A DNA stretch of 64,000 nt from Stegostoma tigrinum (lineage: Eukaryota): contig NC_081391.1 of NCBI RefSeq assembly GCF_030684315.1, positions 21,288,629 through 21,352,628 of the forward strand, read 5' to 3'. A model generated the notes under the pieces. The model was not told where the DNA came from. It did no database searches and saw only the letters and a program-made list of their open reading frames with translations. Position numbers and translations under genes: made by a program. Position 1 is the stretch's first letter, and the number at the start of each line of letters is the position of its first letter. Below, one piece after another: positions 1 to 64,000 of this stretch.

Positions 1-467
1 AGGTGGGTGATGGTGATAATGAGGCTGCTGACTGAGCTTTCTGGCTGTGTTCACGAACACATGTCCCTTCATTCAGTTGGACAGGGGCCTAACTGGTCTC
101 CACCTCCTGAACAATAGTGTTTCTAACCTGCAGAGCAGGGATGTCTAATGTCTATAGATAGCTCTCCACTTCATCAGGCACCATGCCACATGTACTGTCT
201 CTCTTTCTCGCTCACACAGGCCAGGGATTGCATTTGCTTTTTGTCCTTGATTTCCAGAAAGCTGGTGAAATATCTGCACAAAGGCTGCTTTAGTATCTGT
301 TGTTTGGGTTATAATCCATGGAAGGTGACTTCCTGCTTTGTCTGTTTTTTTACCACTTAAATGTGGAATCAAGATGGTGCCCAGGTTATTTCCTGAGTGA
401 GGAGTGTCATTCACGAATTTCAGACAGTTTCCTTTTAACCTCTCTCCCTCCCTCCCTCCCTCCACAG

Positions 468-1646
468 TTCTCTTACTTTGACCGGGATGATGTTGCCCTG
501 CATCACTTTGCTGAGTTCTTCAAGGAGCAGTCCCATGAGGAACGGGAACACGCTGAGAAACTGATGGCATTCCAGAATAAACGTGGAGGTCGAGTCCTCC
601 TGCAGGACATTAAGGTTGGATTCTGAAGCCTTCTGTTTGTGTAGCTCTTTGTGAGCAGCTACAATCGACTGGTATCTCCCTCTATTTAGCTTTAGCATTG
701 ATCAAATACTGTATGAAGGGGAGGCTGTTCTGCAAAATAGGCTTCCTTTAGGTGACAGGAAATAATCATCAATTGAGACTCACCAGAATAGTGAGTAGAT
801 ATCAATGTGAATGACTCTCCTTTAGACAGACTGAGGGAACAAAAGCTGAGACAGGAAATTGTTGCAGTGTGGAAAGTAGCAGTGTCCAGCCTTTCTGAAT
901 CTGGAAGATGTTTCTAACACCACAATCGTGAAGCCTATTCTCTGCATGTGAATTGAGAATCGACATGAACAGTAGAATGTGTTTAGAAAATTTCTTATTC
1001 CCTCAGTACAAAATCTAGTTGTCTTGAACAAATTCAAGTTTGTTTGTAGTACCTCCTACAATGATGAGGGATAACTAACCGATGTAGACTAATGATACAA
1101 CTGCCTGCTGAACTCTGCTTTCTGTTCCCACTTCCCTCCCTCCAGAAGCCAGAGCAGGATGAGTGGGGCAATGGTCTGGAGGCAATGCAGAGAGCTCTGC
1201 AGATGGAGAAGGATGTGAACCAGAGTCTGCTGGATCTGCACAAACTGGCCTCTGGCCACATGGACCCTCATGTGAGTTTGTAAACTGTATTCTCTCTCTT
1301 CCTTGGAAGAAAGTGATGTGTTTGTGCACTCTCTCTTGGTTTAAAAATCCAATTACCTTCTCCCAGCCTCCTACCGGCTGGTAAAACCTTTCAAAGGCAT
1401 CACCTAAGTGGACCTCCACATGGTGGTGATGGTCGCGTCTGTCATGGGAAGTCACTTTCAGACACCTTTTTGATCCTCTGGATTAATTTTGTCTTCCAGC
1501 TGTGTGACTTCCTGGAGAGGCACTACTTGGATGAGCAAGTGAAGATGATCAAGAAGCTGGGAGATCACATCACCAACCTGAAGAGACTGGGAGCCCCTGC
1601 CAATGGCATGGGAGAGTACCTGTTTGACAGGCTCACACTCAGCTGA
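468..1646 (+). CDS. Ferritin unit A, partial (exon 1 upstream of window). Exon2 468-614, exon3 1146-1271, exon4 1500-1646
   Basis: Spliced translation [32 protein letters not shown]...[10 protein letters not shown]...[15 protein letters not shown]...[10 protein letters not shown]; canonical AG/GT; phase-0 introns as in vertebrate ferritins. Confidence 0.93.
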
Positions 1647-60884: not shown

Positions 60885-63830
60885 ATGGCTTCCCCAGTGT
60901 GTCAGAACTACCACAAGGACTGTGAGGATGCTGTTCACAAACAGATCGACCTGGAGCTCTGTTCCTCCTATGTTTACCTCTCCACGGTGAGCCTTGTGAC
61001 ATTGAAGATCTGACCTCAAATTGAAGCCTGTGATATATTTGCATTGACCCTCAGGTTTATTTTCTTGCCTCGTTTAATGATTTAGCTGTAGCATGTGTTC
61101 TGGTCTGTGGCCCTTCCCTGAGTGAATCCAGTAAAATTGTTAACACCGACTCTGTTGGAAACTTGAAGTTTATGTTGTGTTCTAACTGAGTCATGGGCGA
61201 CATTTACCACTTATCTCTGGACAATGTACACCCTAGTGATTTTTCTTCATGCTGTGAAGGGATGAGCTGGCGTTGCTGATGAGCCTATACTTTTCTTAAA
61301 GTTGGTTGCAACTTTTTTGTTAGAAAAGCTTTCCCTCGTGTGAAAATTTCAAAGCAACATGTACTCTCACTCACTTTATGCAAAATGTACTCGCACTCTT
61401 AAAATGTTGCCCCATTCACCAGGCTGCCCTCTGCTCTGGCCCTAAATGAGTTTTTTTCTTTTCTAAAAGAACAGCAACTGCTGGAAATTAGAAACAGCAA
61501 CAAAAAGAGCTGGAATAGCTTTACAGATCTGGCAGGACTTAGAGAAATCAGTTCATGTTTTGGGTCCAGTGACTCTTCCTCAGAAGTAGGTTTCTCAGCT
61601 ATTCAGTAGGAGGAAGGACAAGTGTGGTATGTTTTCACACTCCAAATGTGAATTACTGAAAAAGAAACCAGTTAGAATTCAGTGCTGGGGAGAAGGTAGG
61701 ACAGAGTGGGGTTATTCAGGTGGGTGATGTTTGTAATGCTGGACCTCACTGCAAATCCTGGCCGTTGGTGGGTGTGTGTGTGTGTGTGTCCCTGATTGGC
61801 TGGTTGTGTGCCCTCTGTTTAGGATGTAATCCATGGAAAAAGCCTTCCTGCTTTACAGATCTGGCAGGATCACATTCCAGTAATTGCATGTACAGTTCTG
61901 GTCGCCACATTACCAAAAGGATGTGAATGCTTTGGAAGGGGGTGCAGAGGAGGTTCACCAGGATATTGCCTGGTATGGAGGGTGCTAGCTATGAAGAAAG
62001 GATGAGTAGATTAGGATTATTTTCATGAGAAGGAGGGCGATTGAGGGGATGGTGGGTGGCCTGATTTGAGGTCGACAAAATCGTGAGGGGCATAGACAAG
62101 GTGGACAGCAAGAAGCTTTTTCGCCAGAGTGAGACTCACTTTCTAGGGTTCACGAGTTCAATGTAAGAGGAGGAAAGTTTAGCGGGGAATCAGGTTAGAT
62201 TCCCACAGTGTGGAAAGAGGCCTTTTAGCCCAAAAGTACCACACCGCCCCTTTGAAGCATCCCAAACAGACCCATCCCCTATAACCCCCACACCTCTGAA
62301 CCCTACGGGCAATTTATCATGTGGATATGTGTGGAGAAGTTCTTTACCCAGAGATTGGTGGGTGCCTGGCACATGCTGCCCGTGGAGGTGGTAGACGCAG
62401 TCACGCTCGTGTCTTTTAAGATGTGTGGGGACAGGTACATGGATGAGCAGGGAGCAAAGAGATACAAACCCTTAGAAAAGAGATGACAGATTTAGACCGG
62501 ATCTCAATCGGTGCAGGCTTGGATGGTCAAAGAGCCCGTTCCTGTGCTGTAATTTTCTTTGTTCTTAAATGTGGAATCAAGATGGTGACCAGGTTAGTTT
62601 CTGATTGAGGAGTGCCATTGATGAATTTCAGCTATGTTTCCTTTTCCTGCCTTTCTCCTCCCCACAGTTCTCTTACTTTGACCGGGATTATGTTACCCTG
62701 CGTCACTTTGTTGAGTTCTTCAAGGCGCAGTCCCATGAGGAGCGAGAACATGCTGAGAAACTGATCACGTTCCAGAATAAACGTGGAGGCCAAGTCCACC
62801 TGCAGGACATCAAGATTGGATTCTAACCTTTTTTAATCTGCTCACGACAATTGACTGGTATCTCAATATGTTCAGCTTCAAGACTGAACAAATACTATGA
62901 ACGGGAGGCTGTTCACCACAATGAGGCTCCTTTAAAAGGAAATACTTTGCACTTGTGATTGAATAACAGTCAGCAATTGTGATCATCCAGAATACTGGAT
63001 GGTGAGCAAATGTCAGCGTCTAACGCTTCTTTGGACAAGATGAGCTATCAAAAGGTAAGACAGAAAATTGTCAGGTGTGGGAAGCATTTGATGCAGCCCT
63101 TCCACATCTAGAAGATGTTTCTGATGCCTGGGGATCATTCTGATCACTGAATAGTAGGATATGTTTGGAAAATTTCCTCTTCAAGAAAAGAATAGTACAA
63201 CATCTGGCAGGTGTTTAACCAAAGTAAAGTTGGTCTGAGGTACCTCCCCTACAATGATGAGGGATAACTAACTGATCAGATGTAGACGAATGATAGAACT
63301 GCCTGCTGAGCTGTGCTTTCTGTTCCTGCTTCCATCCCTCCAGAAGCCAGAGCAGGATGAGTGGAGCAATGGTCTGGAGGCAATGCAGAGAGCTCTGCAG
63401 ATGGAGAAGGATGTGAACCAGAGTCTGCTGGATCTGCACAAACTCGCATCTGGCCACACTGACCCTCATGTGAGTTTGTAAACTTTCTTCTTGGAAGAAA
63501 GTGGTGTGTTTGTGCACTCTCTGGGTAAACATCCAATTACCTTCTCCCAGCCTCCTGCAGGCTGTTAAAACAAACATACAAATGCATCACCTCAGTGGAC
63601 CTCCACATGGTGGTGATGGTCACATCTGTCATGGGGGTCACTTTCAGACACTTTTGATCCTCTGGATTAATTTTCTCTTCCAGCTGTGTGACTTCCTGGA
63701 GAGGCAATACTTGGATGAGCAAGTGAAGATGATCAAGAAGCTGGGAGATCACATCACCAACCTGAAGAGACTGGGAGCCCCTGACAATGGCATGGGAGAG
63801 TACCTGTTTGACAGGCTCACACTCAGCTGA
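60885..63830 (+). pseudogene. Ferritin unit J, probable pseudogene. Exons 60885-60986, 62668-62814, 63344-63469, 63684-63830
   Basis: Exon 2 donor GT>AT at 62815; many missense changes in exons 1-2; hairpin insertion with upstream ATGs in the 5'UTR. Confidence 0.87.
61772..61789. repeat. (GT)n microsatellite
   Basis: About nine GT units in J intron 1. Confidence 0.75.
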
Positions 63831-64000
63831 ATGGGGTCAATAATGTGAATGTTGTACATGGTGACATAATGCTAGTAACTTGGTTGTGCTCTGAGCAAAT
63901 TAAAATAGTGTTCACCATGCAACTGAGTACTTTGCATAATTTCACAGCTGTTTCTGGCTCTTGGTATTGCTGTTTGACACCTGATCATGAAGTGTTTTTC

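Follow-up and report, generated by a model that had tools for sequence, protein, structure and literature searches.

A tandem ferritin array in the zebra shark, most likely part of a large cluster of a shark-and-ray-specific subfamily

Why would a shark carry ferritin genes in tandem, and what might so many copies be for? The question is raised by a 64-kb stretch of the zebra shark (Stegostoma tigrinum) genome, the whole of which was analysed and is called the window below. Using a six-frame motif search and exon mapping, we found ten ferritin units of a four-exon type, all on the + strand (Table 1), in line with the ten same-strand units of the first-pass annotation. Five of these (U3, U5, U6, U7 and U9) are intact: their four exons are separated by GT-AG introns and carry an uninterrupted 173-codon frame, bearing out the earlier count of at least five intact reading frames. 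Each intact unit has a poly(A) signal and, 55-77 nt upstream of the ATG, a TATA box. The others are U1, which is cut by the window edge, and four broken copies (U2, U4, U8 and U10). Spacings from exon 2 to exon 2 were 5092, 10992, 6799, 8109, 6631, 6860, 5089, 6706 and 5922 nt, so that the 5-9 kb described earlier holds for eight of nine and fails for the longest, which a 4.3-kb CR1 insertion lengthens.

As exon 1 of U1 lies outside the window, about 750 nt before its start judging from the 98% duplicate block (1-8327 and 44491-52808), the array continues leftward, as the first-pass annotation expected. Continuation on the right lies beyond the window's view, and the zebra shark has at least 28 distinct ferritin sequences on record (some may be isoforms), taken as lying on one 26,869,179-bp contig. 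Only three of these match window units exactly. No flanking non-ferritin gene was seen within the 64-kb window, and Tandem Repeats Finder returned one trivial match on it. Long open reading frames outside the LINE belong to the spacers, among them 14072-14536 with its copies, and the one that was scanned had no Pfam match. We place the window within a large tandem cluster whose genes belong to a ferritin subfamily specific to sharks and rays.

Table 1. Features mapped in the window
Feature	Position	Strand	Details
Segmental duplicate of 44491-52808	1..8327	+	148 substitutions in 8311 aligned nt; 98.2% identity
U1 ferritin, exons 2-4	468..1646	+	exons 468-614, 1146-1271, 1500-1646; frame open; 139/139 residues identical to zebra shark protein P0138
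CR1 3' fragment, 5'-truncated, in spacer	3741..4907	+	related fragments 19843-20995, 27008-28193, 48222-49387
U2 ferritin, exons 2-4 only	5560..6770	+	no promoter or exon 1 (deletion junction near 4910-4930); GG acceptor at exon 2
Long CR1-type LINE	8328..12631 (ends approximate)	+	ORF1 GDSL-esterase-like, 8717-9652; ORF2 10427-12542 in two overlapping frames, RT domain
U3 ferritin, intact	15406..17758	+	exons 15483-15584, 16552-16698, 17272-17397, 17612-17758; protein identical to P0135; TATA at 15406; ATTAAA 69 nt past stop
Last 95 nt of intron 2 (U3), C/D-box-like layout	17177..17271	+	conserved in all ten units; ATGATGA 17182, CTGA 17234
U4 ferritin pseudogene	22128..24610	+	TGA in exon 2; 2-nt deletion at exon 4 start; E136K
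U5 ferritin, frame intact	30231..32694	+	TATA box changed to TAGAAACA; protein identical to P0122
U6 ferritin, intact	36282..39287	+	5' leader shortened; CR1 fragment within intron 1 (37323-37438)
U7 ferritin, intact	43662..46129	+	
U8 ferritin, exons 2-4 only	50040..51252	+	promoter and exon 1 deletion shared with U2
U9 ferritin, intact	55585..57959	+	
U10 ferritin, decaying	60586..63830	+	AT donor at exon 2; numerous amino-acid changes; between TATA box and ATG, a 225-nt palindromic insertion with 16-nt target-site duplication (60614-60854); intron 1 contains a CR1 fragment (61890-62127)

The array itself is already known: it is annotated in RefSeq, and a shark expansion is in print. U3, U5 and exons 2-4 of U1 are identical to the zebra shark RefSeq models XP_059496476.1, XP_059496542.1 and XP_059496719.1, and these genes are therefore already annotated; their RefSeq names (‘ferritin heavy chain, oocyte isoform-like’, ‘heavy’ and ‘middle subunit-like’) are automatic best-hit labels only. 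An identical protein for U6, U7 or U9 was not found among the 337 proteins compared. What we add is a separate shark-and-ray clade, core residues accompanied by Met140, no iron-responsive element (IRE) found, and homogenised exons against mosaic introns.

In our trees, the array proteins form one shark-and-ray clade, comprising sharks and a sawfish, that is separate from FTH1 (support 100/100), and the FTH1 clade, which contains chimaera and skate FTH1, leaves them outside (94/94). Placement among H, M and L chains was addressed by four AU tests, none of which rejected an alternative: the array as sister to FTH1 gave a p-AU of 0.31, and three backbone alternatives bearing on M/L placement gave 0.18-0.42 in a set that holds no mammalian L chain. 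The array is apparently on the same contig as a single-copy non-FTH1 ferritin in five species. The accessible text of a Greenland shark preprint describes a clustered ferritin expansion that is ancient in sharks and shares synteny with the great white shark, and reports ovary-specific expression of the largest cluster (Sahm et al., bioRxiv 10.1101/2024.09.09.611499). Like the window, these clusters are a large, ancient, clustered expansion, and the window genes share their clade with paralogs of the great white shark (Carcharodon P0076, SH-aLRT 100), a grouping read, as is the grouping of copies by lineage, from a quick tree of 91 rows. Through these great white shark proteins, the window array would be orthologous to the Greenland shark cluster. 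Another genome paper on the Greenland shark reportedly also notes ferritin copies. The preprint labels its copies FTL (155) and FTH1 (179); as the sampled array proteins are one non-FTH1 clade, the two labels may have been assigned by best hit to what are the same genes. Its accessible text yielded no mention of an IRE, Met140 or concerted evolution, and its supplements may hold more. Nothing on these three points for the shark cluster was found in the literature searched, which leaves out most subscription journals, and the accessible parts of PMC13007054 and PMC11719527 held nothing further on the cluster.

Are these proteins working ferritins? The array subunit matches PF00210 with 138 bits (Pfam cut-off 24.5), and its helices (11-38, 46-72, 93-120, 124-154 and 161-172) make up a four-helix bundle plus a short E helix. 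By domain and fold, the 173-residue product is thus an animal 24-mer ferritin subunit, with assembly and iron mineralisation predicted. E23, Y30, E57, E58, H61, E103, Q137, C126, D127 and E130 are kept in every unit that covers them, and E136 in 9 of 10 (U4 carries E136K). In frog M numbering, all five intact units have E23, E58, H61, E103 and Q137, the transit residues E57/E136 and the channel residues D127/E130 (roles of these and of D140 as given in the available text of PMC10114856). At position 140, all ten units have Met in place of Asp140, the sixth ligand of frog M. Met140 occurs in 163 of the 286 proteins scored, all of them named shark or ray array proteins, and the other 123 have Ala, Ser or other residues. 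Met140 takes the place of the usual Asp, Ser or Ala and may affect activity; the kept residues are those of an H/M-type subunit and predict ferroxidase activity. Frog M/H' ferritin and mammalian FTH1 (PDB 3ka4, 4mjy and 6z6u) have the same fold (TM 0.96-0.97, 70-76% identity) and the same core di-iron and channel residues; the array copies differ from frog M in Met140, in a C-terminus three residues shorter (173 versus 176 aa), in the absence of a detected IRE and in being many.

If the array mRNAs were under the usual iron control, then an IRE would be looked for in their leaders. Rfam gave no match of any kind at its gathering threshold, and no IRE family was among the nine Rfam matches at E<=5. 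Six IRE-like hairpins occur in the window, none within 400 nt upstream of an ATG. We also considered a degenerate IRE remnant and rejected it, as five leaders folded no better than their shuffled versions (z -0.25 to 0.47). Contigs from run X5 reach 15235, upstream of the U3 TATA box, and longer leaders therefore exist; no IRE was found in this longer sequence either. The extent of the leaders is judged from contigs, with starts unmapped, and the scans ran without a shark FTH1 leader as positive control. Within this scope no IRE was found, and the array mRNAs appear to be without one.

Run X5, from the same species, contains spliced contigs that, placed on U3, have GT..AG joints at all three introns, and run X18, from another organism, contains a 693-nt spliced contig. 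As runs were matched at 85% likeness, expression is established at the level of the family, with no read tied to one window copy. Expression of the array is in this sense supported; since X5 has no tissue on record, ovary expression rests on another species. The dosage-driven or specialised role suggested by the first-pass annotation would fit the ovary-specific expression in the preprint. In DNA runs X1 and X9 summed contig depth was greater over exons than over introns, and in X5 it was very high over exons; this depth measures neither copy number nor expression, and we did not use it. Two other runs of the X5 study had almost no array sequence words, which we did not count as tissue specificity.

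How, then, does the array evolve? Introns differ by 25-34% on average between units and fall into distinct types, and four-fold sites differ by only 0.096. Among intact units, pN/pS was 0.246 (10 pairs, which are not independent), against 0.50 among broken copies. The 4.3-kb LINE, which we take to be CR1 from its layout of an ORF1 esterase plus a reverse transcriptase, sits in just one of the two copies of the duplicated block; the corresponding site, near 52806, lacks it. A near-identical tract inside the block (7039-8029) can be read as recent gene conversion. Collectively, these comparisons demonstrate the sequence signatures of purifying selection, exon-centred recombination, block duplication and frequent pseudogenisation. 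Exons have been homogenised while introns remain mosaic, and the copies cluster by lineage; this is concerted evolution. Birth-and-death evolution, proposed earlier, is thus upheld in part, by the broken units and the pN/pS values (0.25 intact, 0.50 broken), and falls short as a full account.

The end of intron 2 carries boxes in a snoRNA-like order, with ATGATGA in 9 of 10 units, a terminal CTGA in all ten and a D' box lost in three. The best Rfam score, for sR1, was 36.4, under the gathering threshold of 45, at which no known snoRNA family was found, and metagenome contigs held no exact homolog. Best duplexes of the two guides with rRNA averaged 7.3 and 7.1 nt, compared to 7.5 and 7.7 nt for shuffled guides, across the 18 of 110 eukaryotic rDNA loci long enough to be scanned (controls on six; no confirmed vertebrate rRNA or snRNA in the set). 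The element shows no cover at 17217 in X5, a kind of gap that carries no weight. A box C/D snoRNA is therefore not supported: the boxes are present, yet three copies lack the D' box and neither an Rfam family nor, among the rDNA loci scanned, an rRNA target was found. At 18-45 nt from the acceptor, nothing but the D box resembles a branch point, and the element is probably a branch point and pyrimidine tract plus a conversion tract. That this C/D-box (K-turn) element, co-amplified in each copy, is an orphan snoRNA or a splicing switch seems quite unlikely.

We favour, with somewhat better than even confidence, a dosage-amplified, iron-independent maternal oocyte ferritin that evolves by exon-centred recombination and birth and death. 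The cluster would be a gene-dosage device for oocytes, with many copies transcribed together in the ovary. An mRNA that has no IRE would escape the block by iron-regulatory proteins, so that ferritin cages could be made in bulk at any cytosolic iron level; these would hold maternal iron safely and limit oxidative damage in a large, yolky, slow-developing egg. Exon-seeded unequal crossing-over may keep exons alike while introns drift, together with a co-assembly preference, near-identical subunits being favoured because they assemble into one 24-mer. The four broken copies, which we counted against the oocyte-dosage reading, agree with loose dosage needs. Snail yolk ferritin is secreted. Egg and yolk ferritins reported from amphibians, snails and schistosomes are likewise stockpiled in eggs, while the shark proteins begin like cytosolic H/M chains with no leader peptide; the available text of PMC1488847 also describes abundant ferritin mRNA in zebrafish follicles and cites a title on schistosome ferritin mRNAs lacking IREs.

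Several other explanations have to be weighed. That the assembly has multiplied one gene or a few deserves scarcely any credence: the 8.3-kb block duplicated at 98.2% identity could by itself be a haplotype, but the intron divergence and distinct intron types mean that the array is no assembly artefact, different spacers carry different insertions, and many distinct paralogs occur in independent assemblies of many sharks. For the array as a whole this possibility is already refuted. Copy number could also drift in a mostly non-adaptive way, with a recombination-prone locus spawning copies of which few matter and whose number is itself unselected. The four broken units, an exon-1-less unit that was itself duplicated (U2/U8), the mosaic units and the one conversion tract all suit such drift, and conversion from functional copies could imitate purifying selection; we nonetheless consider it rather unlikely. 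It is likewise unlikely that the array encodes a specialised egg protein beyond ordinary iron catalysis, with the second iron site blocked or slowed by Met140 and the cages used as a bulk store, as structure or for other metals. The confinement of Met140 to array proteins, the long stem branch leading to their clade and the listing of D140 among the ferroxidase-centre ligands of frog M ferritin argue for it; against it, the centre listed for human H ferritin has five ligands and no acid at position 140 (both from the available text of PMC10114856), the H-type proteins compared here have Ala or Ser there, and every other residue for catalysis, transit or the channel is retained.

The mammalian FTHL17 family is multi-copy, expressed in the germ line, intronless and said to have no ferroxidase activity; in contrast to such intronless retrogenes, the shark genes have three introns, are spliced and keep the catalytic residues. 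Array-bearing sharks live in both shallow and deep water, so no shared stress is evident, which argues against a somatic role in which dosage serves general antioxidant defence (against ROS and ferroptosis) or iron withholding (nutritional immunity). Such a role was proposed for hadal snailfish fthl27, which the accessible text gives as 14 mostly tandem copies versus 3 in a close relative, expressed in most tissues and lowering ROS when overexpressed (PMC10746142). This tandem expansion is likewise read as dosage, and the core ferroxidase residues of the array are intact. However, the snailfish array is recent, broadly expressed and ROS-linked, the shark cluster is ancient, and the sole statement on shark expression that we found is ovary-specific (bioRxiv 10.1101/2024.09.09.611499); we regard the somatic reading as rather improbable. 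With tandem copies in snailfish (PMC10746142) and the shark expansion in print (bioRxiv 10.1101/2024.09.09.611499), the first-pass comparison with mammals overstated the novelty of the array.

A bolder form of the oocyte reading, which we hold tentatively and as doubtful, is a third, dedicated ferritin subfamily of sharks and rays, apart from both FTH1 and the ordinary M/L chains. It would be an oocyte ferritin tuned by Met140 and encoded without an IRE, maintained at tens or hundreds of copies over more than 250 million years and homogenised in the way rRNA and histone genes are, and it would supply maternal iron to giant eggs. If an IRE-free oocyte ferritin is indeed what the array encodes, a vertebrate would evade the textbook iron control of ferritin translation through gene amplification, and the iron supply of large, slow-developing shark eggs would be accounted for. 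As shallow-water carpet sharks have the cluster too, ferritin copy number in sharks would then be a poor marker of longevity or deep-sea life. The array is also a clean example of exon-centred concerted evolution in an intron-containing protein gene.

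We searched all six frames for motifs and mapped exons, which revealed ten ferritin units in the window, all on the plus strand (U1–U10, left to right). The first-pass annotation had described ten same-strand units, at least five with intact ORFs, spaced roughly 5-9 kb apart, and the description is accurate: U3, U5, U6, U7 and U9 are intact (5/10), and eight of the nine spacings measure 5.1-8.1 kb, the ninth being 11.0 kb. A complete unit has four coding exons (102 + 147 + 126 + 147 nt) encoding 173 residues. The frame of U1 is open, but the window's left edge cuts the unit. U2 and U8 share one deletion that removes the promoter and exon 1; the ~650 nt 5' of their exon 2 resemble intron 1 of U6 and U10 (80-82%), beyond which, where a LINE fragment ends, the sequence gives way to spacer resembling that behind U3 (93%). 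In U4 a stop codon interrupts exon 2 and exon 4 has lost 2 nt, and U10 has an AT splice donor. An insertion also occupies the U10 leader; its centre presumably resembles Penelope-type hammerhead sequence, and Rfam gave no match to it. A LINE of 4.3 kb, carrying frames for an esterase-like protein and a reverse transcriptase, lies in the 11.0-kb spacing; it shares ~70% identity with older spacer fragments and is missing from the sister block.

Features located in the window (coordinates count from its start)
Feature	Position	Description
Near-identical block	1-8327 and 44491-52808	148 substitutions in 8311 nt
Long CR1-type LINE	8328-12631	ORF1 open, 311 aa; ORF2 spread over two frames
Promoter block	15331-15413	Inverted CCAAT in CTGATTGGYYA context, CANNTG hexamer, TATA; also in six other promoters
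Exon 2 skip	15584-17272	In frame; exon 1 joined straight to exon 3
Intron 2 element (U3)	17177-17271	Last 95 nt of intron 2
U10 leader insertion	60614-60854	225 nt palindromic, 88-nt inverted arms (97% complementary), 16-nt target-site duplication

An assembly artefact is very improbable as the source of the array, because introns diverge between units (mean pairwise 0.25 in the 5' part of intron 2 and 0.34 in intron 3, with distinct intron types), because the two copies of the only near-identical block are unlike in LINE presence and in the sequence that follows, and because independent assemblies of many sharks also carry numerous paralogs. Of the 24 runs listed, four were compared with the U3 region. 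In the same-species run X5, 41,140 of 714,730 contigs were placed on 3 kb around U3 at 85% likeness, with exon joints at GT..AG across all three introns; X18, from another organism, gave one 693-nt contig covering all four exons. These data show that the ferritin family is transcribed and spliced, at the level of the family rather than of a tissue, amount or copy. Some X5 contigs skip exon 2; they may derive from copies like U10 or U2, in which an exon 2 splice site is broken.

Seven units bear exon 1. All of these have an E-box-like hexamer, six have an inverted CCAAT box, and six have a TATA box 55-77 nt 5' of the ATG; the TATA box is altered in U5 and displaced to -299 in U10. The CCAAT context is Y-box-like, of a kind common in oocyte genes. 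Judging from the TATA position, we expect most transcripts to have a leader shorter than about 50 nt, although X5 contigs that begin at 15235 point to longer leaders as well. With no shark FTH1 leader as control, we found no iron-responsive element (IRE) in the predicted leaders or in this longer stretch: Rfam had no hit above gathering and, at E<=5, none to an IRE family. The window holds six IRE-like hairpins, all of them away from start codons, and the leaders fold no better than shuffles.

The encoded protein matches Pfam Ferritin (138 bits), and its predicted model has five helices (pLDDT 90.6) and a TM score of 0.97 against frog M and human H chains. Its start lines up with cytosolic H/M chains, so it has no leader peptide. 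In frog M numbering, E23, Y30, E57, E58, H61, E103, C126, D127, E130, E136 and Q137 are present in all five intact units; roles for most are given in PMC10114856. Frog M carries Asp at position 140 and H-type chains carry Ala or Ser there; the residue is Met in 10/10 units. Of 337 collected ferritins, 51 fell outside the scoring pattern, and Met140 occurred in 163 of the 286 scored, every one named as a shark or ray protein.

The U3 and U5 proteins are identical to zebra shark RefSeq P0135 and P0122 (173/173 each), and U1 exons 2-4 to P0138 (139/139), so the DNA most probably comes from this species. Among the matches listed, with up to 15 members per cluster, zebra shark has at least 28 distinct ferritins, some possibly isoforms, taken as lying on one 26,869,179-bp contig. 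Four of these (P0006, P0007, P0008, P0239) form a second multi-copy subfamily, taken as same-contig and absent from the window, with Ile at position 140; in P0006-P0008 the first transit glutamate is changed. Multi-copy sets occur in bamboo, epaulette, whale, horn, cat, smooth-hound, basking, great white, saw and sevengill sharks, and sawfish contributes one array-type member among the matches listed. In a 37-protein tree, the ten sampled array proteins group together in one clade (100/100), and FTH1 (94/94) and a single-copy shark-and-ray ferritin (100/98) fall outside it, with every sister relationship in the backbone unrejected (p-AU 0.18-0.42). The array and the single-copy non-FTH1 gene are taken as same-contig in five species, which hints that the array arose locally from this non-FTH1 locus. 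A quick tree of 91 rows included 46 array rows, picked by hand from the full-length collected proteins together with the five intact units; its copies cluster mostly with others of their own lineage (carpet sharks 97, horn shark 94, sevengill 94, smooth-hound 93). Many RefSeq models, 260-270 aa long (P0003, P0004, P0163-P0176), contain exons 2-3 twice; gene modelling has probably joined a full copy to a neighbour that lacks exon 1, as U2 and U8 do. P0111, P0164 and P0280, vertebrate-type ferritins under bacterial names, are probably database contamination.

Over exons 2-4, pN/pS is 0.246 across 10 intact-unit pairs versus 0.50 across 6 broken-unit pairs, the pairs being non-independent. Four-fold sites diverge by 0.096 (~46 sites per pair), one third of the intron value; between U1 and U2 they differ by 0.06, and the introns by 0.36 and 0.57. 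Units are mosaic: the units nearest to U10 are U2/U6/U8 at intron 2 (0.20-0.21) but U3 both at intron 3 (0.026) and across the 3' region (0.013), and U4 joins a U2/U6/U8-type 3' region (0.05) to a different intron 3. Within the 98% block, one tract of 1.09 kb shows a single difference (Poisson P 7e-8, uncorrected for the search). Third-position GC is 0.65-0.70 versus 0.40-0.44 in intron 2, and synonymous-site selection could contribute to exon likeness. We read the pattern as exon-seeded recombination and conversion superimposed on birth and death, so the birth-and-death evolution proposed at first pass stands, though not alone.

Weak Rfam matches to archaeal sR1 (8/10 units, below gathering) fall in the last 95 nt of intron 2, where units differ by 0.079 versus 0.29-0.33 for the equivalent stretch of other introns. 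This element, present in all ten units, is conserved on par with synonymous exon sites and is compact and C/D box RNA-like, with a C box near which conservation begins, weaker internal boxes and a terminal CTGA; a CTACA/TGTAG stem could close a small C-box hairpin. A DNA contig from another organism spans it at ~90%, and other intron pieces matched equally well. Three findings speak against a snoRNA: 3/10 units have lost the D' box, the sole branch-point-like motif at the usual distance is the D box, and guide pairing to rRNA, across 18 eukaryotic rDNA loci (two confirmed by Rfam), found no target and was no better than shuffles. The element most likely represents splicing signals plus conversion.

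The array is real and its outline already known, since the genes carry RefSeq annotation and arrays have been reported elsewhere: a Greenland shark preprint gives 155 'FTL' and 179 'FTH1' copies, ~80% in three clusters syntenic with great white shark (bioRxiv 10.1101/2024.09.09.611499), and a hadal snailfish report gives 14 copies, mostly tandem (PMC10746142). The twist is testable and under-described; our open-licence literature search found nothing on a missing IRE, the Met140 signature, a separate clade or homogenisation.

IRE control of ferritin by iron-regulatory proteins is well established. With its many copies, all built as compact TATA genes that lack an IRE, the array would give a large ferritin mRNA supply beyond the hold of these proteins. 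Somatic antioxidant dosage, as in snailfish, seems an unlikely use for it, copy-number drift is just as doubtful an origin, and an egg protein made non-catalytic or altered through Met140 is improbable. We favour a maternal store because the largest Greenland shark ferritin cluster is reported to be expressed ovary-specifically (bioRxiv 10.1101/2024.09.09.611499), zebrafish follicles are rich in ferritin mRNA, and eggs of amphibians, snails and schistosomes are reported to contain ferritin (PMC1488847). The array would probably stock large, yolky eggs with maternal iron.
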